NCBI GenBank assembly: GCA_965262725.1
Contig: OZ253555.1
Location: 1,408,001 to 1,472,000, forward strand
Length of the DNA stretch: 64,000 nucleotides
Reading direction: 5' to 3'
Source of the DNA: Dehalococcoidia bacterium
Lineage (GTDB): Bacteria > Chloroflexota > Dehalococcoidia > UBA2979
Notes under the pieces: generated by a model
What the model saw: the letters and a program-made list of their open reading frames with translations, nothing else
Databases searched by the model: none
Told to the model about the DNA's origin: nothing
Part shown: positions 14,429 to 46,003 of the stretch, piece after piece
Layout of the letters: every line of letters starts with the position of its first letter
Numbering within the stretch: the first letter of the stretch is position 1
Program-made: the position numbers and the translations under genes

Positions 14429-14684
14429 GCGGGGCTGACGTGATCGCGCCTAACGCTCATGCTGGTCGTGGAGGAGCGAGCATGTGTCGATCGCCAGGGT
14501 CATTGATCCACGCGTCGCCACGGTCATTAGACCACCCGGGACGCCGGTAGGCGGCTTGATATCAGTGAGCGTCTAGTGTCCTGAATTGGAAATGCGATTG
14601 AGATATCCGGTGAGGTTGGTGTGTCCCGAAGTCGAAGGGCGGGTGACGTGATGACGTAACCGGTCTGGAGACATGCTCGTCGTT

Positions 14685-16104
14685 GAGTAGCGTCCCAGCA
14701 AGTGGTGTCACAGGCGGGGAGACGGTCTCCGCAGGGGGACCTACTACCGACCACGGTGCCCATGCAGGTGGACGTAAGAGACCACCGCATCATCCTTCAC
14801 GAAGTTATGACGAACGTGGAGGAGGACGACGGTGGTCAGAGAGAGCGTGGACGTGTTGGAACTGCTCCGCAAGCAGGCATCGGGAGCTGACCTCGATTTC
14901 CTGCGCGAAGCGGTGGCTGTGCTCGCCGAGGCGGTCATGGACCAGGAGGTCTCGGCGCAGGTCGGCGCCGGCTACGGTGAGCGCAGCGAGATGCGCACCA
15001 CCCGGCGCAACGGCTACAGGCAAAGACGCTGGGACACGCGGGTGGGCAGCATCGACCTGCAGATCCCGAAGCTCCGCCAGGGGTCCTACTTCCCGGCGCT
15101 GCTCGAGCCCCGGCGCCGCTCAGAGCGCGCCCTGCTAGCCGTCGTCCAGCAGGCGTACGTGGAGGGCGTCTCCACACGCCGCGTCGACGACCTCGTGCGC
15201 TCGCTCGGCTGCGAGGGCATCTCCAAGAGCCAGGTCTCGCGTATCTGCTCGGAGCTCGACACGGTCGTCACAAGTTTCCTCGGCCGGCCCCTGGACTCCG
15301 GCCCCTACCGATACCTCTGGCTCGACGCGCTCACCCAGCGGGTGCGCGAGGAGGGCCGCATCGCCCAGGTGAGCGTCGTCGTCGCCACCGCGGTCAACGT
15401 GGAGGGGAAGCGCGAGGTGCTGGGCATCGACGTCGGTACCAGCGAGGACGGGGCCTTCTGGCTGGCATTTCTCCGCGGCCTCGTAGCACGAGGGCTCTCC
15501 GGCGTGGAGCTGGTGACCTCCGACGCCCACCAGGGCCTGAGGGGAGCGATCGCGACCGTCTTCGGCGGCGCCTCCTGGCAGCGCTGCCGTACCCACTTCA
15601 TGCGGAACCTGCTCACACGCGTGCCGAAGAGCGCCGAGGCGCTGGTGGCGACGACCGTGCGCACCATCTACCAGCAGCCCTCGGCCTCCGAGGTGCACGC
15701 CCAGCACACGCGGGTCGTGGAGCAGCTCGGTGCGCGCTTCCCGCAGGCCGCGGCGATGCTCGCCGACGCCGCGGAGGAGATCCTGGCGTTCACGGCCTTC
15801 CCGGTGGCGCACTGGCGTCAGGTCTGGTCGAACAACCCCCAGGAGCGCCTCAACAAGGAGATCCGCCGGCGCACCAACGTCGTCGGCATCTTCCCCAACC
15901 GCTCAGCGGTCATCCGGCTCATCGGTGCGGTGCTCTCCGAGCAGCACGACGAGTGGGCCGTGGGGCGGCGCTACATGACGATGATGACGCTGCTCGCCCC
16001 GCCGGGGAGTGAGCTCACGCCGGGCAAGGAGGTGCTGCTGCAGGCTGCCGGCTAAGAACTGATAAGGATGGTGCGCAGTGACACCACTTGCCGGGACGTG
16101 ACCC
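14685..16104 (+). mobile_element. IS256-family insertion sequence
   Basis: 27-nt imperfect TIRs GAGTAGCGTCCCAGCAAGTGGTGTCAC / GTGACACCACTTGCCGGGACGTGACCC; GTCGTT duplicated on both sides; absent from intron copy 2. Confidence 0.92.
14832..16055 (+). CDS. IS256-family transposase
   Basis: RNGYRQR, GVSTRRV, YLWLDA, SDAHQGL, WQRCRTHF, SNNPQERLNKEIRRR. Confidence 0.95.
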   Translation: MVRESVDVLELLRKQASGADLDFLREAVAVLAEAVMDQEVSAQVGAGYGERSEMRTTRRNGYRQRRWDTRVGSIDLQIPKLRQGSYFPALLEPRRRSERALLAVVQQAYVEGVSTRRVDDLVRSLGCEGISKSQVSRICSELDTVVTSFLGRPLDSGPYRYLWLDALTQRVREEGRIAQVSVVVATAVNVEGKREVLGIDVGTSEDGAFWLAFLRGLVARGLSGVELVTSDAHQGLRGAIATVFGGASWQRCRTHFMRNLLTRVPKSAEALVATTVRTIYQQPSASEVHAQHTRVVEQLGARFPQAAAMLADAAEEILAFTAFPVAHWRQVWSNNPQERLNKEIRRRTNVVGIFPNRSAVIRLIGAVLSEQHDEWAVGRRYMTMMTLLAPPGSELTPGKEVLLQAAG

Positions 16105-16616
16105 GTCGTTGCCAGCCGGTGCGAGTCCGGCACGGGTAACTGTCAGGAGGCCCGTTAGCAGGTCGGCGGCGCGGACGGGAAACGGTCCACGTCGAAGCCC
16201 GACGTCAAGAGCCCTATCAGGGGGAGCAACCAAGCGGTCCGCAGCATCAAGCGAAGCCTGCCGCGTCGTTAACGGATAGTGGAGGAGCCGAGCCCGGCAA
16301 TTCAGGGCGAAGGCCATGGACGAGGTGAAGATCCTGAATGCGCGTTGCGCTGCAGCCTCAAGGAACCTCCCGGCGTAAGGGGCGTGGAACGTTTGGAAGG
16401 TAGCGACGGGAACGGGAGAAGCCCTCCCCGGCCCGGCACCCTGCGAGATGGTGTCGGAGCGAGGTGCCCTATAACCGGTCAAAGCCGGGAAGTGGGCAGC
16501 TAGCCGGAAGGGTGACGGAGGGGGTCGTAGTACCGCTTGAGCCGGACGGACAACACAACCGCCGGTGATGGGAAGGACCCCTGCTTTGCTCACGCGTGGG
16601 GAGTAGGGATGAATCG

Positions 16617-18816
16617 GTGAGTGCCCAAGCGGCTAACTCCATCCAAGACAAGGTCCGAACACTACAACGCACGCTTTACCGGGCGGCCAAGGCCGACCCC
16701 AATAGACGCTTTCATGCGCTCTACGACAAGGTTTATCGCAGAGACATTCTGGAGCGCGCGTGGGAGCAGGTGCGTCGCAATCGCGGCGCAGCCGGTATCG
16801 ACGGCGTCACGCTCGCCGAGGTCGAGCGCTACGGCGTGGAGCGCCTGCTGGATGAACTGGCCACGGAACTGAAGGAGGGAAGATACCGGGTGCAGCCGAG
16901 CCGCCGGGTCTGGATACCCAAGCCCGGTCGGTCGGAAGAGCGCCCGCTCTCGATTCCTTCGGTCCGCGACCGCATCGTGCAGGCGTCGCTGAAGCTCGTG
17001 ACGGAGCCGGTCTTCGAGGCCGACTTCCTGCCATGCAGCTTCGGCTTCCGCCCGAAGCGTTCGGCCCATGACGCCCTGCAGGTCCTCATTGACGAGGCGT
17101 GGCGGGGCAGGCGGTGGGTAGTGGAGACGGACATCGCCTCGTGTTTCGAGTCGATACCGCGTGCGTCCGGAAGTCGAAGGGGTGGTGACGTGATGACGTG
17201 ACCGGTCCGGAGACATGCTCGTTGCTGCCAGCCGGTGAGAGTCCGGCACGGGTAACTGTCAGGAGGCCCGTTAGCAGGTCGGCGGCGTGGACGGGAAACG
17301 GTCTGCGTCGAAGCCCGACGTCAAGAGCCCTATGAGGGGGAGCAAACGTGCGGTCCGCAGCATGACGCGAAGTCTGCCGCGCCGTGAGACTCGCCTGTCT
17401 ATTGACAGGACCAAGGAGGAGCCGAGCCCGGGTGGTCAGGGCGAAGGCCATGGACGAGGTGAAGATCCTGGAATGCAGCCTCAAGAAACCTCCCGGCGTA
17501 TGGGACGTGGAACGTACGGAAGGTAGCGACGGGAACCGGAGAAGCCCTCCCCGGCCCGGCACCCTGTGAGAGGGCGTCGGAGCGAGGCGTCCTATAACCG
17601 GTCAGAGCCGGGAAGTGGACAGCCAGCCGGAAGGGTGGCGGAGGGGGTCGTAGTACCGCTGGAGCCGGACGGACAACATAACCGCCGGTGATGGGAAGGA
17701 CCCCTACTTTGTCCGTGCATGTTGCTGGGGGTGTGGACTGGTGAGTGCCCCTCGGGGCTAGCAACCACTTGGTAGGGTTCGAGGCTCTCCGCACATGCTG
17801 TACCGGCTGGCCAAGGCACGACCCACGTTGTGGGGAGCGCTGCATGCCATCTGGTGAAGGGCATCGGTGAGCCGGATGAGGGAGAACCTCACGTCCGGTT
17901 CGATGTGGCAGGGGCTGGAGACGGACGCTGCTATGGCCGTGGAGTTGGGCACCACCGGGAAACCGGCTTGGAACTGATGCGCCACCGCCTACGGCTCGCA
18001 CCGCGCCAGCCCCTGACCCTACACGACCGTCTGATGACGGCCGTCGAGGAACGGATATGCGACCGCAATCTCCTGAAGCTGGTACGGGCGATGCTGCGTG
18101 CCGGTGTGATGGAGTCGGGGGTCGTGCAGCACAGCGCGACGGGTACGCCGCAGGGCGGGGTGATGTCCCCGCTGCTGGCCAATGTCTACCTGCACCGGTT
18201 GGACCGGGACTGGGAGGCGAAGGGTGATGGCGTGCTGGTGCGCTATGCGGATGACCTCGTGGTGCTCTGCCGGAGCCGGGAGGAAGCGGAGCGGGCGTTG
18301 GCCCTGCTGCGTGACCTGCTGGGTGAGCTCGGACTGGAGCTCAAGGCGGAGAAGACGCGCATCGTGCACCTGCGGGAGGGAGGCGAGGGGCTGGAGTTCC
18401 TCGGCTTCGAGCATCGCTGGGTACGTGCGAAGCGCAACAAGAATATCCAGTTCCTCGCACGCTGGCCCTCACGGCGAGCGATGCAGCGGGCGCGGGACCG
18501 CATCCGTGAAATCACGGCGCGGTTGCGTCTGCTGCTGAGTCCCCGGCAGGTCGTGGAGGAAGTCAATCGCTACCTCCGCGGCTGGATGAGCTACTTCCGC
18601 TACGGCAACTCGGCGAGGGCGTTCGACGTCCTGCACTGGTTTGCCATGTGGAGACTCAAACTCTGGCTGGGGAAGCGGTTGCGTTGGCGGCGACGCCATC
18701 GCGGGCACCCGTTTCCCGTCGCCGACCGTCTGGGGCTCATCTCGCTAGCTGGACAGCGCGTCGTGGCACCACGGCCATATCGACCGTGGCGGGGCACCCC
18801 GCATGCCGCCCGGTGA
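16617..18816 (+). CDS. ltrA: Group II intron reverse transcriptase/maturase, split: join(16617..17160,18023..18816), ~445 aa, no endonuclease domain
   Basis: Exon 1 has GAAGIDG, RPLSIPSVRDRIVQ, SFGFRPKRSAHDA and ends TCG ATA CCG C. Exon 2 begins AC GAC CGT and has GTPQGGVMSPLLAN, RYADD, FLGF and domain X. The splice restores FESIPHDRLM in frame. Confidence 0.92.
17161..18022 (+). ncRNA. Group II intron B (inner, ORF-less, 862 nt), copy 1
   Basis: 5' GTGCG; domains I-III homologous to intron A; DIV keeps only ORF remnants; DV GAGCCGGATGAGGGAGAACCTCACGTCCGGTTC; 3' CCCTGACCCTAC. Confidence 0.92.
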
Positions 18817-19124
18817 AGGGCATCGGTGAGCCGGATGAGGGAAAACCTCACGTCCGGTTCGAGGCGGCAGGGGCTGGAGACGGACGATGCTACGGCTGTG
18901 GAGATGGGCGCCACCGGGAAACCGGCCTGGCAATATGCGCCACCGCCTACGGCTCGCACCGCGCCAGCCCCTGACCCTACTCAAGGATCTGGTCGGTGGT
19001 CTTGTGCGAGATGAAGCGCATCCGGTGCTCGTTCCAGTTGCGACCCAAGCCTCCACTGGGCGGACCAAGCCTGCGAGGCTCGGTGCGATTGTTTTCAGCA
19101 TTTGCAACTCGGGACACTAGCGCG

Positions 19125-19898
19125 TCAATCACCTCCCGTCTGCGCCTCGAGCAGGGCGCGGTGCGGCGAGAGCCGCTGGCGGTAGCTATCGCCCTCGATC
19201 ACGATCTGGTAGCTGGCGTTGGCGAGGCGGTCGAGGGCGCTGTTGCCGAGGATCGGGTCGTCGAAGAGACCCAGCCATTCCTCCACGGCGCGGTTCGAGG
19301 TGATGACGAAGCTGGAGCTGCGGTGGCGCCCGATGACCAGCTCGTAGAGGTCGATGGACTGCTGCGCGCTGAGGCGATGGAGCCCGAGGTCGTCGAGGAT
19401 GAGCAGGTCGGGGGCGAGGAAGCTTCGGAAGACCTTCTCGGCCGAGTGGTCGACGCGGGCCTGCGCCATCTCGCGGAAGTAGTGGTCGGCCGGGGCGAAG
19501 CGGACGCTGCGTCCGGAGCGGACGGCTGAGTAGCCGAGCGCCTGGGCTAAGAAGCTCTTGCCGACGCCGACGGGGCCGACGAGCAGGACGTGCTCGCGGC
19601 GGTCGAGGAAGTGCAGCGAGAAGGCGGCGTCGAGCAGGCGGCGGTCGAGCCGGATGGCGGCCGCCCAGTCGAAGTCCTCGAGGCGGCAGAGCTGCTCGAA
19701 GCCGGCCTGGCGCAGGCGCAGCTCCAACCGCCCGTGGTCGCGGCGGCTCACCTCGTCGACGAGCAGGATCTGCAGGAAGTCCGCGTAGTCGAGGTGGTCG
19801 CGCCGCGCGAGGGCGATGCGCTCGGGCAGGGTGTCGAGCATACGGCCGAGCTTGAGGCGCTTGAGCAGCGGGCGGAGGTCTGAGGTGGTGGCGGTCAT
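19125..19898 (-). CDS. istB: IS21 helper ATPase IstB
   Basis: LEDFDW, Walker A GPVGVGKS, LLILDDLG, ITSN, LDRL; ATGA overlap with istA. Confidence 0.93.
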   Translation of the reverse strand: MTATTSDLRPLLKRLKLGRMLDTLPERIALARRDHLDYADFLQILLVDEVSRRDHGRLELRLRQAGFEQLCRLEDFDWAAAIRLDRRLLDAAFSLHFLDRREHVLLVGPVGVGKSFLAQALGYSAVRSGRSVRFAPADHYFREMAQARVDHSAEKVFRSFLAPDLLILDDLGLHRLSAQQSIDLYELVIGRHRSSSFVITSNRAVEEWLGLFDDPILGNSALDRLANASYQIVIEGDSYRQRLSPHRALLEAQTGGD

Positions 19899-21475
19899 CG
19901 TGGTGCTCCTGTCGGGGTCTGCGTGCGGGACTGGGCGAAGACGGAGCCCGAGCGGGCGAAGCGCCCCGGAGGCGGCGGCAGCTCGGGCTGGTCTGGGGTG
20001 CTCTCCTGGTCGAGGGCGCGGACGAGGATGCGCTCGAGGCGGCGCACGTCGATGAGGTCGACCTCGAGCGCGCGGCGGCAGGCGGCGTCGAGGCGGTCCG
20101 GGGAGTAGCGCTCGGCGAGGCGCAGCAGCTTGTGGCCCTGCCGCAGCTTCGCCCAGGGCAGGGAGCCCTCGAAGAGACGCTCGGCGTAGGCGCCCACGGC
20201 CTCCCCCAGCTCGGCGGCGCGGCGCTGTATCCAGTCGGGCGCCCGCCTGGTGTAGGGGGTGAGCTCGGCCGGGTAGTCGTTCGGGTCGGTGGCGCGGCCG
20301 CCCCGGCGCTGGCGCGGGTGGACCTTGATGAGCTGACCGCGGTGGTAGATGCGCACCAGCTTCGAGCCGAGCTGCACCTCGACCTTCTGGCGGGGCGGGC
20401 AGGCCATGGACGGCACCGAGTACAGAGCGTACTGGCAGGCGATGTGGTGGTCCGGGTGGACCGTGGCCGTCCGCCAGTCGGGGACCTCGTAGGGCTCGCC
20501 GTCCCAGGGAGCGAGCAGAGGGAGCTCCTCCTTCAGGAAGACCTCGAGCGGGCGCCGGCGTGTCGTGCCGTGGATGCGCTGCCCCGCCACCTCGAGGCAC
20601 CAGCTGCGGGCGGCGGAGCGCAGGTCGACGACGTCCCGGAAGTCGCCGCCCTTGAAGAGGCGCTCGCGCACGTAGGGGATGCTGCGTTCGACGCGCGGCT
20701 TGTCGCGGGGATGACGCACGCGCGCGGGGTCGGTGATGAAGCCTCTGTGGCGGGCGTACTCGAGGAAGCCCCGCGTGAAGCGCGGGTGCAGCGCGTCGGC
20801 CCCGGCGACGGCGGCCGGGAAGTTATCGATGACGAGGTAGCGCGGCACGCCCCCGAAGAAGGCCCAGGCCTCCTCCAGGCCCTCGATCACGGCGTCCAGC
20901 TTCTGGCTGGTGGTGGGCCACACAAAGCAGTGGCGGGAGTAGCGCCAGACGACGACCAGCGCCCACACCGCGCGCCGGCGGCCGCTCTCGGGGTCCCGGA
21001 TGAAGCCGAGGCGGCCGAAGTCCATCTCCGCCACCTCGCCCGGCGGCCCGTCGTCCATGCGCACGGTCGACGGCAGCCGGTGGCGCCAGCCGCGGCGCCG
21101 GATGAAACGCCGCAGCGTGGTGTAGGAGACCTCGCAGCCTCGTCCGGCGAGGAGCTCCTGGATGCGCGTCAGTTGCAGGCGGTCGGTCTCAAGCCAGCGC
21201 TCGATCTGCTCCGCCCAGGGCGAGAGCAGCTCCTCGCTCGGCGCCTCGACCTGCCGCGGGCCGGAGAGGCTCAGCGTCGCCAGCGCGGCGAGCTGCTCCT
21301 CACTCGGCTCGGGACCGCCCGGCGTGAGGCCGGCCGCCTCGGCCGCCTCGACGTAGCGGCGCACCGTCACGCGCGATAGCCCCGTGCCGCTGGCGATGCG
21401 GCGCTGGCTGAGCCCCGCCTGCCAGCGTCGAATGATCTCCTGGATCTCCACCCCGTGTACCTCCCGGTAGGCCAT
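19895..21475 (-). CDS. istA: IS21 transposase IstA
   Basis: N-terminal HTH, PGEVAEMDFG, YLVIDN, PRDKPRVER; start MAYREV with GGAGGGAG RBS. Confidence 0.93.
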   Translation of the reverse strand: MAYREVHGVEIQEIIRRWQAGLSQRRIASGTGLSRVTVRRYVEAAEAAGLTPGGPEPSEEQLAALATLSLSGPRQVEAPSEELLSPWAEQIERWLETDRLQLTRIQELLAGRGCEVSYTTLRRFIRRRGWRHRLPSTVRMDDGPPGEVAEMDFGRLGFIRDPESGRRRAVWALVVVWRYSRHCFVWPTTSQKLDAVIEGLEEAWAFFGGVPRYLVIDNFPAAVAGADALHPRFTRGFLEYARHRGFITDPARVRHPRDKPRVERSIPYVRERLFKGGDFRDVVDLRSAARSWCLEVAGQRIHGTTRRRPLEVFLKEELPLLAPWDGEPYEVPDWRTATVHPDHHIACQYALYSVPSMACPPRQKVEVQLGSKLVRIYHRGQLIKVHPRQRRGGRATDPNDYPAELTPYTRRAPDWIQRRAAELGEAVGAYAERLFEGSLPWAKLRQGHKLLRLAERYSPDRLDAACRRALEVDLIDVRRLERILVRALDQESTPDQPELPPPPGRFARSGSVFAQSRTQTPTGAPR

Positions 21476-21633
21476 CGCTGCTCCCTCCGCTGGGGATGCA
21501 GGCGATGGTGGCCGTACCGGCGACCCGGGCGGGCAGGAGTCCCTGACGGGGTGGATCAATGACCCTGGCGAAGTGGATCAATGACCCTGGCGATCTGGCG
21601 ATTTCGTGGTCTATAGACCTTGGCGATTCACAC

Positions 21634-40505: not shown

Positions 40506-40919
40506 TGTCGATCGCCAGGGTCATTGAGCCACGCGTCGCCACGGTCATTGGACCACCCGGGACGCCGGTAGGCGGCTTGATATCAGTGAGCGTCTAGCGC
40601 GTCAATCACCTCCCGTCTGCGCCTCGAGCAGGGCGCGGTGCGGCGAGAGCCGCTGGCGGTAGCTATCGCCCTCGATCACGATCTGGTAGCTGGCGTTGGC
40701 GAGGCGGTCGAGGGCGCTGTTGCCGAGGATCGGGTCGTCGAAGAGACCCAGCCATTCCTCCACGGCGCGGTTCGAGGTGATGACGAAGCTGGAGCTGCGG
40801 TGGCGCCCGATGACCAGCTCGTAGAGGTCGATGGACTGCTGCGCGCTGAGGCGATGGAGCCCGAGGTCGTCGAGGATGAGCAGGTCGGGCGCGAGGAAGC
40901 TTCGGAAGACCTTCTCGGC
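40506..40919 (-). mobile_element. Truncated second copy of the IS21 element (right end + istB 3' part)
   Basis: Near-identical to 14485-14576 + 19121-19442, with a single unoccupied CTAG. Confidence 0.9.
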
Positions 40920-42884: not shown

Positions 42885-43189
42885 CTAGTGTCCCGAGTTG
42901 CAAATGCTGAAAACAATCGCACCGAGCCTCGCAGGCCTGGTCCGCTCAGTGGAGGCTTGGGTCGCAACTGGAAACGAGCACCGGAGGCGCTTCATCTGGC
43001 ACAAGTCCGCGGACCAGATCTTTGAGTAGGGTCAGGGGCTGGCGCGGTGCGAGCCGTAGGCGGTGGCGCATATTGCCAGGCCGGTTTCCCGGTGGCGCCC
43101 ATCTCCACAGCCGTAGCATCGTCCGTCTCCAGCCCCTGCCGCCTCGAACCGGACGTGAGGTTTTCCCTCATCCGGCTCACCGATGCCCT

Positions 43190-45389
43190 TCACCGGGCGG
43201 CATGCGGGGTGCCCCGCCACGGTCGATATGGCCGTGGTGCCACGACGCGCTGTCCAGCTAGCGAGATGAGCCCCAGACGGTCGGCGACGGGAAACGGGTG
43301 CCCGCGATGGCGTCGCCGCCAACGCAACCGCTTCCCCAGCCAGAGTTTGAGTCTCCACATGGCAAACCAGTGCAGGACGTCGAACGCCCTCGCCGAGTTG
43401 CCGTAGCGGAAGTAGCTCATCCAGCCGCGGAGGTAGCGATTGACTTCCTCCACGACCTGCCGGGGACTCAGCAGCAGACGCAACCGCGCCGTGATTTCAC
43501 GGATGCGGTCCCGCGCCCGCTGCATCGCTCGCCGTGAGGGCCAGCGTGCGAGGAACTGGATATTCTTGTTGCGCTTCGCACGTACCCAGCGATGCTCGAA
43601 GCCGAGGAACTCCAGCCCCTCGCCTCCCTCCCGCAGGTGCACGATGCGCGTCTTCTCCGCCTTGAGCTCCAGTCCGAGCTCACCCAGCAGGTCACGCAGC
43701 AGGGCCAACGCCCGCTCCGCTTCCTCCCGGCTCCGGCAGAGCACCACGAGGTCATCCGCATAGCGCACCAGCACGCCATCACCCTTCGCCTCCCAGTCCC
43801 GGTCCAACCGGTGCAGGTAGACATTGGCCAGCAGCGGGGACATCACCCCGCCCTGCGGCGTACCCGTCGCGCTGTGCTGCACGACCCCCGACTCCATCAC
43901 ACCGGCACGCAGCATCGCCCGTACCAGCTTCAGGAGATTGCGGTCGCATATCCGTTCCTCGACGGCCGTCATCAGACGGTCGTGTAGGGTCAGGGGCTGG
44001 CGCGGTGCGAGCCGTAGGCGGTGGCGCATCAGTTCCAAGCCGGTTTCCCGGTGGTGCCCAACTCCACGGCCATAGCAGCGTCCGTCTCCAGCCCCTGCCA
44101 CATCGAACCGGACGTGAGGTTCTCCCTCATCCGGCTCACCGATGCCCTTCACCAGATGGCATGCAGCGCTCCCCACAACGTGGGTCGTGCCTTGGCCAGC
44201 CGGTACAGCATGTGCGGAGAGCCTCGAACCCTACCAAGTGGTTGCTAGCCCCGAGGGGCACTCACCAGTCCACACCCCCAGCAACATGCACGGACAAAGT
44301 AGGGGTCCTTCCCATCACCGGCGGTTATGTTGTCCGTCCGGCTCCAGCGGTACTACGACCCCCTCCGCCACCCTTCCGGCTGGCTGTCCACTTCCCGGCT
44401 CTGACCGGTTATAGGACGCCTCGCTCCGACGCCCTCTCACAGGGTGCCGGGCCGGGGAGGGCTTCTCCGGTTCCCGTCGCTACCTTCCGTACGTTCCACG
44501 TCCCATACGCCGGGAGGTTTCTTGAGGCTGCATTCCAGGATCTTCACCTCGTCCATGGCCTTCGCCCTGACCACCCGGGCTCGGCTCCTCCTTGGTCCTG
44601 TCAATAGACAGGCGAGTCTCACGGCGCGGCAGACTTCGCGTCATGCTGCGGACCGCACGTTTGCTCCCCCTCATAGGGCTCTTGACGTCGGGCTTCGACG
44701 CAGACCGTTTCCCGTCCACGCCGCCGACCTGCTAACGGGCCTCCTGACAGTTACCCGTGCCGGACTCTCACCGGCTGGCAGCAACGAGCATGTCTCCGGA
44801 CCGGTCACGTCATCACGTCACCACCCCTTCGACTTCCGGACGCACGCGGTATCGACTCGAAACACGAGGCGATGTCCGTCTCCACTACCCACCGCCTGCC
44901 CCGCCACGCCTCGTCAATGAGGACCTGCAGGGCGTCATGGGCCGAACGCTTCGGGCGGAAGCCGAAGCTGCATGGCAGGAAGTCGGCCTCGAAGACCGGC
45001 TCCGTCACGAGCTTCAGCGACGCCTGCACGATGCGGTCGCGGACCGAAGGAATCGAGAGCGGGCGCTCTTCCGACCGACCGGGCTTGGGTATCCAGACCC
45101 GGCGGCTCGGCTGCACCCGGTATCTTCCCTCCTTCAGTTCCGTGGCCAGTTCATCCAGCAGGCGCTCCACGCCGTAGCGCTCGACCTCGGCGAGCGTGAC
45201 GCCGTCGATACCGGCTGCGCCGCGATTGCGACGCACCTGCTCCCACGCGCGCTCCAGAATGTCTCTGCGATAAACCTTGTCGTAGAGCGCATGAAAGCGT
45301 CTATTGGGGTCGGCCTTGGCCGCCCGGTAAAGCGTGCGTTGTAGTGTTCGGACCTTGTCTTGGATGGAGTTAGCCGCTTGGGCACTCAC
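43190..45389 (-). CDS. ltrA: Group II intron RT/maturase, split: complement(join(43190..43983,44846..45389))
   Basis: ORF-track translations of both halves are identical to copy 1. Confidence 0.92.
43984..44845 (-). ncRNA. Group II intron B (inner, ORF-less), copy 2
   Basis: Reverse complement of 17161-18022. Confidence 0.92.
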
Positions 45390-46003
45390 CGATTCATCCC
45401 TACTCCCCACGCGTGAGCAAAGCAGGGGTCCTTCCCATCACCGGCGGTTGTGTTGTCCGTCCGGCTCAAGCGGTACTACGACCCCCTCCGTCACCCTTCC
45501 GGCTAGCTGCCCACTTCCCGGCTTTGACCGGTTATAGGGCACCTCGCTCCGACACCATCTCGCAGGGTGCCGGGCCGGGGAGGGCTTCTCCCGTTCCCGT
45601 CGCTACCTTCCAAACGTTCCACGCCCCTTACGCCGGGAGGTTCCTTGAGGCTGCAGCGCAACGCGCATTCAGGATCTTCACCTCGTCCATGGCCTTCGCC
45701 CTGAATTGCCGGGCTCGGCTCCTCCACTATCCGTTAACGACGCGGCAGGCTTCGCTTGATGCTGCGGACCGCTTGGTTGCTCCCCCTGATAGGGCTCTTG
45801 ACGTCGGGCTTCGACGTGGACCGTTTCCCGTCCGCGCCGCCGACCTGCTAACGGGCCTCCTGACAGTTACCCGTGCCGGACTCGCACCGGCTGGCAACGA
45901 CGAGCATGTCTCCAGACCGGTTACGTCATCACGTCACCCGCCCTTCGACTTCGGGACACACCAACCTCACCGGATATCTCAATCGCATTTCCAATTCAGG
46001 ACA

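Follow-up and report, generated by a model that had tools for sequence, protein, structure and literature searches.

An intron without a reading frame interrupts every cognate reverse transcriptase gene of its parent group II intron in a Dehalococcoidia genome

In the thermophilic cyanobacterium Thermosynechococcus elongatus, TeI3 group II introns, which lack an open reading frame (ORF), derive from ORF-containing introns of the TeI4 type and sit inside the TeI4 ORF (Mohr, Ghanem and Lambowitz 2010, PMC2882425). In the parts of that report on which we draw, the intron-encoded protein (IEP) of the outer intron is able to splice and mobilize both partners. The inner intron is inserted between the first two ATG codons of the ORF, which are five codons apart, so that the IEP can be produced from the second ATG without inner splicing, and two T. 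elongatus introns keep continuous ORFs (PMC2882425). Here we describe a related arrangement in a 64,000-nucleotide (nt) stretch, hereafter the window, of the genome of a Dehalococcoidia bacterium (positions 1408001–1472000 of a single contig of 3.67 Mb, OZ253555.1). A group II intron of ~2.07 kb, intron A, encodes a reverse transcriptase (RT) and maturase with no endonuclease, and its RT gene is interrupted by a second, ORF-less group II intron, intron B. The architecture is known in kind, as that of ORF-less derivatives inside the ORFs of ORF-containing relatives (PMC2882425). As with TeI3 in TeI4, so far as the cited parts of that report go, the inner intron arose by ORF deletion within the lineage of the outer intron and lies within the outer domain 4 ORF, the inner copies are identical to each other, ORF-less copies have spread to further sites, and other mobile elements are targeted too; B thus shares with TeI3 both its origin by ORF deletion and its many near-identical copies at distinct sites. 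Unlike in T. elongatus, by the same comparison, the RT domain here is split (between RVT_1 positions 83 and 90), the frame stops within B and none of 15 cognate ORFs is continuous, and the host groups with Dehalococcoidia metagenome-assembled genomes (MAGs). New here are the insertion in the middle of the RT, which makes inner splicing obligatory, the occupation of all cognate RT genes, and the host lineage.

A 2003 paper by Dai and Zimmerly (RNA 9:14) on the archaeon Methanosarcina acetivorans reportedly deals, in the words of its title, with homing into related intron ORFs. Nests in Methanosarcina have been attributed to site-specific homing events that repeatedly targeted other group II introns (review, PMC4424553). 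To the extent that this source covers it, M. acetivorans resembles the present genome in its multi-level nesting (three levels at one locus here) and in the non-essential exons that flank the nests, and differs in being archaeal and in stacking up to five introns. A bacterial twintron is known from Trichodesmium erythraeum, in which ORF-less introns are likewise thought to rely on trans-encoded maturases and sequential splicing is reported in the title of the study (Pfreundt and Hess 2015, PMC4649490). The emphasis there, in the portion cited, is on introns in protein-coding genes and not on the intron's own RT gene, and the evidence comes from RNA, whereas ours comes from sequence alone. In Chaetomium thermophilum, a group IIA1 intron interrupts the mobility-protein ORF of the outer intron mS1247 and was examined as a regulator of its expression, but the outer intron described in that source belongs to group I and has a homing endonuclease (PMC4801052), and, because the protein whose ORF is broken does not serve the inner intron as a maturase, self-dependence does not arise. 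In the literature that we searched, which left most subscription journals outside its coverage, we found no saturated, obligatorily self-gated twintron, and nothing relevant on group II introns in Dehalococcoidia.

The first-pass annotation of the window, made from the letters without database searches, had placed B as an 862-nt intron within a His codon of the RT gene of intron A, and both the ends of B and its copies bear this out. B occupies 17161–18022 on the forward strand, beginning with GTGCG at 17161 and ending with CCCTAC (...CTAC at 18022), in agreement with group II termini (5′ GUGYG, 3′ AY), and its ends are set by 24 full-length, 100% identical copies whose flanks differ. The His codon is split after its first base (C/AC): exon 1 ends in ...CCG C and exon 2 starts with AC GAC. 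Exon 1 of the RT/maturase gene (16596–17160, forward strand) starts at a GTG at 16596 or an in-frame GTG at 16617, carries RT motifs 0–2 and ends with the first base of the His codon. Exon 2 (18023–18816, forward strand) supplies the last two bases of that codon, RT motifs 3–7 with YADD, the X/maturase domain and the stop codon, and is without an endonuclease domain. In unspliced RNA the frame is the ORF 16596–17201, which stops, as had been annotated, at 17201; the TGA responsible (17199–17201, forward strand) lies 39–41 nt into B. The two halves are colinear in the protein family models. The upstream half (16596–17159) matches positions 1–83 of Pfam RVT_1 and 2–137 of TIGR04416, the downstream half (18025–18813) matches positions 90–204 of RVT_1, GIIM (2.8e-14) and positions 140–352 of TIGR04416, and only one codon lies between the halves.

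Relatives of A that lack B tell us what the joined gene should look like. All eight related loci that hold both halves (L001–L006, L020 and L021; four from Dehalococcoidia MAGs, two from actinobacterial MAGs and the other two on metagenome contigs, with a ninth, L010, cut by the end of its locus) encode them in one frame, adjoining with a single codon between, which is His in seven of the eight and Lys in L004. Because these uninterrupted homologues are colinear across the site, precise excision of B restores the RT ORF, as the first-pass annotation had proposed. B lies wholly within the domain 4 ORF of A, of which uninterrupted relatives thus exist. With a stop 40 nt into B, and with the polymerase domain divided by B, the reading frames show that a working A-type RT/maturase can be translated only once B has been spliced out of the RNA precisely. 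We set aside one candidate for a splice-independent product, the ORF 17830–18816, which starts at a GTG within B and runs in frame for 328 codons through domains 5 and 6 (D5 and D6) into exon 2, because it is without RT motifs 0–2 and because an open stretch of 64 codons is ordinary in such GC-rich DNA. Its openness is probably due to chance, and an N-terminally truncated protein made from unspliced RNA could in principle be conceived.

The interruption is not peculiar to the window. A tblastn search of the genome with both RT halves returned 15 A-type RT genes, comprising 12 copies of A (99.5–100% identity) and three A-like introns whose RTs are 77–89% identical to that of A in the N-terminal half and 72% in the C-terminal half. 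In all 15, B separates the halves at the same codon. The first-pass annotation had held that an uninterrupted cognate RT elsewhere in the genome would make these copies passive relics; we found none in the assembled genome. That genome is 91.55% complete by marker genes, and a B-free A-type RT could reside on an unassembled replicon. Both RT halves are complete and free of stops in 10 of the 12 A copies. Six A copies, the second copy of the window among them, are uninterrupted twintrons with a single B, and the other six, which include the first window copy, have a tandem B or carry insertions in A or B. The nearest database relatives of the A RT are from Dehalococcoidia MAGs.

We found that B has the sequence and predicted structure expected of an active ribozyme. 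Domains 1–4 (D1–D4) score 102.8 bits with RF02003, whose gathering score is 49, and the model is placed at 17229–17365. D5, at 17869–17901, forms a hairpin with the catalytic AGC and a 2-nt bulge, fits RF00029 and two D5-only models, and was also recovered by folding. The whole D5–D6 model RF00029 scores 37.5 bits on B, below its gathering score of 40, because D6 is long; the minimum-free-energy fold of D5 and D6 of B (z −4.67) leaves one A bulged in D6, 7 nt before the 3′ end. The D6 of both A (18862–18980) and B (17902–18022) is unusually long, at ~120 nt, and forms an extended helix in which the bulged A, close to the base, is normal. We also aligned the 5′ 560 nt of B with A, one A-like intron and six relatives from other genomes; of the 154 D1–D3 pairs in the RNAalifold consensus of these nine, 35 show compensatory changes. 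B and A each retain 152, in a consensus predicted from an alignment that itself includes B, and where B and A differ in paired columns the pair is kept in 23 of 25 cases. By these measures B is predicted to be a complete ORF-less group II intron.

Intron A, for its part, matches RF02003 at 95.3 bits (16113–16249) and RF00029 at 41.5 bits (18826–18893). Its ends are common to its 12 copies, and at five empty target sites the two flanks adjoin. With both introns complete and B inside the domain 4 ORF of A, the proposal of a true group II twintron stands. So does the view of B as a close relative of A whose ORF has been deleted: the two are 86% identical over B 1–551 and 89% over B 666–862, and the ORF is missing between. 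In the same alignment B keeps a 10-nt block around the start codon of A. The region around the IEP start codon is the usual location of IEP binding sites. The Rfam D1–D4 models are not labels of structural class (A–F, CL or ML), and the GsI-IIC RT, which is among the nearest solved RTs to the A RT (E 3.1e-58), does not settle the class of the intron.

Copies of B are spread well beyond the RT genes. A genome-wide blastn search with B returned 31 segments at ≥99% identity, which make up 28 copies: 24 full-length and 100% identical, one truncated at position 857, and three split by other insertions. Sixteen copies lie at the same site in the 15 A-type RT genes, one of which holds a tandem pair, and 12 are ectopic; in total B sits at 13 distinct target sequences. 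We propose that B recognizes these through an exon-binding site (EBS) 1, GTGGT at B 272–276, and an EBS2, GACTCG near B 227–232, the counterparts in A being CAATT (EBS1) and CGGATA (EBS2). These are the most variable loops in the family alignment, and those of A fit the target of A whereas those of B fit the RT-gene site. At the RT-gene site, the intron-binding sites IBS1 and IBS2 pair with B at 5 of 5 and 6 of 6 positions, respectively. All 12 ectopic sites offer at least four of five IBS1 pairs, and eight of them all five, compared with 3.8% of 20,000 random genome positions; at least five of six IBS2 pairs form at 10 of the 12, compared with 16% of 20,000 random positions. Two other EBS1 candidates were rejected. 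GCGGT at B 190 occurs in A as well, and its loop covaries with a downstream segment in a manner that resembles tertiary or helix pairing; GTGGC near B 475 has a homologous sequence in A that misfits the target of A.

Consistent with independent movement, B is identical in the 12 A copies and in the three A-like introns, whose RT halves are 72–89% identical to those of A, and this argues for independent insertions of B by the same logic that Mohr et al. applied in T. elongatus. One A copy (L019, genome 548200–552400) has B twice at the RT-gene site, arranged head to tail. Such a tandem is most simply read as a second insertion at the intact 5′-exon side of an occupied site, which would mean that an occupied site stays a target and that the 3′ exon matters little in target choice. 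The copies and their pairing thus point to recent, repeated movement of B by base-pair-guided insertion. They also agree with the suggestion of the first-pass annotation that B is a satellite of A, given that B is non-autonomous, is present in 28 copies and has its own EBS1 and EBS2, which fit the RT site and the 12 ectopic sites. The solo copies of B for which that annotation had suggested a genome search are present, as the 12 ectopic copies outside A-type RT genes.

Some ectopic copies lie in apparent host genes. One (L012, locus positions 1501–2362) is in the sense orientation inside a 1402-codon ORF with cadherin domains (Cadherin, E 1.6e-15), and another (L007, locus positions 1501–2362) is in sense in an ABC-2-type permease-like ORF, the matches of which fall below curated cut-offs. 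Other ectopic copies are antisense in ORFs that we named by eye as histidine-kinase-like and phosphotriesterase-like. B was not found in 30 related genomes, nor in 300 genomes sampled from the class, with two candidates scored per genome. In a genome of the same genus (G003) and one of the same family (G008) the ends of B were matched only as separate segments, and in a third (G018) only B 1–601 was matched; each of the three holds a continuous A-type RT ORF (L008, L016 and L010, respectively).

We consider it probable, if well short of certain, that the whole is best explained by B being an A-derived satellite that gates its helper RT in a conditional autocatalytic loop. On this explanation A homes into a short repeated sequence, and B would be a non-autonomous A-type derivative that lost the ORF and kept D1–D3, the start of D4, D5 and D6. 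Having gained new EBS1 and EBS2 loops that pair with 14 nt of A-type RT coding sequence, located between motifs 2 and 3, B would have reverse-spliced into every A-type RT gene of the genome and into a dozen look-alike sites. The A-type RT presumably assists the splicing and mobility of A and B alike; we infer that it moves B because B is the deletion derivative of A and keeps the 10-nt start-codon block. More splicing of B would then give more RT, and more RT more splicing of B. To start, such a loop would need some B that self-splices at a basal level, protein passed on when the cell divides, or a non-cognate RT. B would attenuate and gate the expression of its helper, with which it would be co-transcribed wherever A is transcribed, and the feedback may, as the first-pass annotation suggested, serve as a switch or throttle. 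A stronger form of the idea makes B a hyperparasite that holds every helper gene, with a loop that is truly closed: each cell would be either ON or OFF, a state passed on through the cytoplasm, and several host genes bearing B in sense, such as those for the cadherin-domain surface protein and the ABC-2-like permease, would be co-switched. We regard this form as doubtful.

Several observations weigh against the loop. We compared assembled contigs from four of nine public sequencing runs with window positions 16596–18816, and no contig from any of the four joins 17160 to 18023; the contigs of the two runs taken as RNA reach neither the RT exons nor the boundaries of B. In the run on record as RNA, one 263-nt contig is identical to B 17312–17574 and others touch only the D5 region, with mismatches; in a second run, whose RNA status is a guess, one 179-nt contig lies inside B. 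The two DNA-like runs also lack a contig that joins 17160 to 18023, but contigs drop rare variants and are thus no proof against a B-free A. EBS1 was partly recognized from the same ectopic sites on which it was later scored; independent support for it comes from the homologous loop of A, which fits A's own, different target. The 100% identity among copies could have been inflated by homogenization of repeats during the assembly or polishing of what is apparently a metagenome-derived single-contig genome. Finally, because five A targets are empty and six of the 12 A copies are broken or hold a tandem, A may now be little active.

The same DNA-like runs gave glimpses of B elsewhere. In one (X4), loose ends behind the 3′ end of B match ectopic B sites of this genome. 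In the other (X3), two loose ends match none of the B flanks of the genome (two contigs, agreement 0.65–0.7), a weak hint that related populations have B at additional sites.

The empty targets and broken copies bring up an alternative that we consider unlikely, in which saturation by B shut down the A-type RT, the hyperparasite killing its helper, so that the twintrons are passive relics of a recent burst and both A and B are immobile. Such a dead end would account for the interruption of all 15 A-type RT genes, for the five A targets that are still empty and for the several A and B copies broken by insertion sequence (IS) elements or other introns, and the want of a splice junction in the run contigs, which is uninformative either way, at least fits it. 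It sits poorly with a B ribozyme that shows no decay (152 of 154 pairs kept), with RT halves that are intact in 10 of 12 A copies, and with 24 identical copies of B, ectopic ones included, alongside a tandem insertion into an occupied site. B also lies in sense in apparently real host genes, those for the cadherin-domain protein and the ABC-2-like permease, and this counts against a dead end because these genes would be lost if B were unable to splice.

The genome encodes other RTs that could act on B in place of its own. Family D introns, of ~1.93 kb, hold 12 RT ORFs, each matching RVT_1 in full and open over 475–500 amino acids without stops; seven contiguous intron copies are ≥99% identical and two are 86–88% identical. 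These 12 intact RTs could prime or bypass the loop, a further point against it. If family D RTs or host factors splice or mobilize B, and perhaps A, the loop would be open and the gate on the A RT incidental. We think this rather improbable, even though the full-length, stop-free frames are numerous and the near-identity of the seven copies points to activity. The family D RT is only 36–46% identical to the A RT, the family D intron matches a different D1–D4 model (RF02005, where A and B match RF02003), and blastn at E 1e-5 finds its RNA similar to neither A nor B, so that family D appears non-cognate to A and B both by protein and by RNA model. B, moreover, keeps the block around the start codon of A, in the region where IEPs usually bind. 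The T. elongatus precedent cuts both ways in the parts of the report cited, as IEPs of relaxed specificity exist there and yet IEPs that are 87% identical still differ in specificity (PMC2882425). We find it highly improbable that mobility is only composite, A(B) spreading as a unit with B unspliced in domain 4 and all A copies inheriting B from one founder: Mohr et al. name composite retromobility as a possible route (PMC2882425, in the part cited), and independent insertion is unprovable among 12 A copies that are, with their B, all ~100% identical, but the identical B also lies in three diverged A-like introns and at 12 ectopic sites and exists as a tandem, and, as the RT would still have to come from spliced RNA, this reading modifies the gated loop rather than replacing it.

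Family D introns are themselves found within the nests. At one locus (L018, genome 732400–737600) an A-like intron contains B, and B contains a family D intron with an intact RT ORF of 500 amino acids, a three-level nest; the family D copy is inserted into the D5 loop of B, at position 722/723. In three of the relatives (L001, L003 and L006) the A-type introns have D-like introns at the equivalent place in D5, and family D seems, from these placements, to home into domain 5 of A-type introns. A further RT-like ORF at genome 314319–314723, within a 468-amino-acid open frame (RVT_1, 32.6 bits), belongs to neither intron family.

The window holds two copies of the twintron. The first is on the forward strand and is broken in domain 1 of A by an IS256-like (Mutator-family transposase) element at 14686–16103, in the same orientation. 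The first 67 nt of this A copy (5′ GTGTG...) lie at 14619–14685 (genome 1422619–1422685), match A 1–67 at 100% and have the same upstream flank as other A copies. The transposase ORF of the element, 14832–16052, matches PF00872 (E 9.6e-132). A positions 60–67 are duplicated at its two ends, with A 1–67 on one side and 60–150 on the other, and the 33 nt that precede 16104 recur at at least eight other places in the genome. Domains 1–3 and the 5′ part of domain 4 of A follow at 16104–16595, as placed by RF02003, the A/B alignment and the consensus structure. Beyond the RT gene and B, the 3′ part of A (D5, the long D6 and the 3′ CCCTAC) lies at 18817–18980, delimited by RF00029 and by the 3′ end common to the 12 A copies. 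Two earlier candidates for the ends of this copy were discarded: a GTGCG at 16071 belongs to the end of the IS256-like element, the A copy starting at 14619, and 18971 as the 3′ end gave way to the shared end at 18980.

In the second copy, on the reverse strand at 43026–45961 (genome ends 1453961 and 1451026), A spans 2936 nt and only B interrupts it. Here B is at 43984–44845 (genome 1452845–1451984, positions 1–862 at 100%), exon 1 of the RT gene at 44846–45410 (N-terminal half 100% identical, genome 1453410–1452847, no stops) and exon 2 at 43190–43983 (C-terminal half 100% identical, genome 1451981–1451193, no stops), all on the reverse strand. The two copies form an inverted repeat, 16104–19033 against 42973–45902, that is 100% complementary over 2930 nt and includes B, which confirms that both RT genes in the window carry it.

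The target of A is a repeated sequence of ~190 nt that adjoins an IS family, represented in the window by 14573–14618 and 18981–19120. At least five such targets are empty, at genome 996160, 1981690, 1986252, 2582070 and 2585265, all outside the window. Set beside the 15 of 15 filled B sites, the five empty A targets suggest either that B homes far more efficiently or that A now moves only in the form A(B). Immediately beyond the A target lies an IS21-type element (19117–21559) with an istA-like ORF at 19895–21559 and an istB-like region within the minus-strand ORF 19125–20600, both named by eye; a 300-nt direct repeat of the end of this element lies at 40594–40893. Mobile elements are abundant in the stretch that separates the two twintron copies.

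Spliceosomal introns, and with them the split of many protein-less introns from a common trans-acting machinery, are presumed to go back to group II introns. The genome described here offers a natural intermediate, in which a protein-less derivative is present in 28 copies, host genes included, compared with 15 RT genes of the parent type. It extends twintron biology to a genome whose closest matches are Dehalococcoidia MAGs. If B depends on the RT that it interrupts, it would be a compact natural case of a parasite throttling its own helper and, if the explanation that we favour is true, a splicing-based positive feedback loop in RNA.

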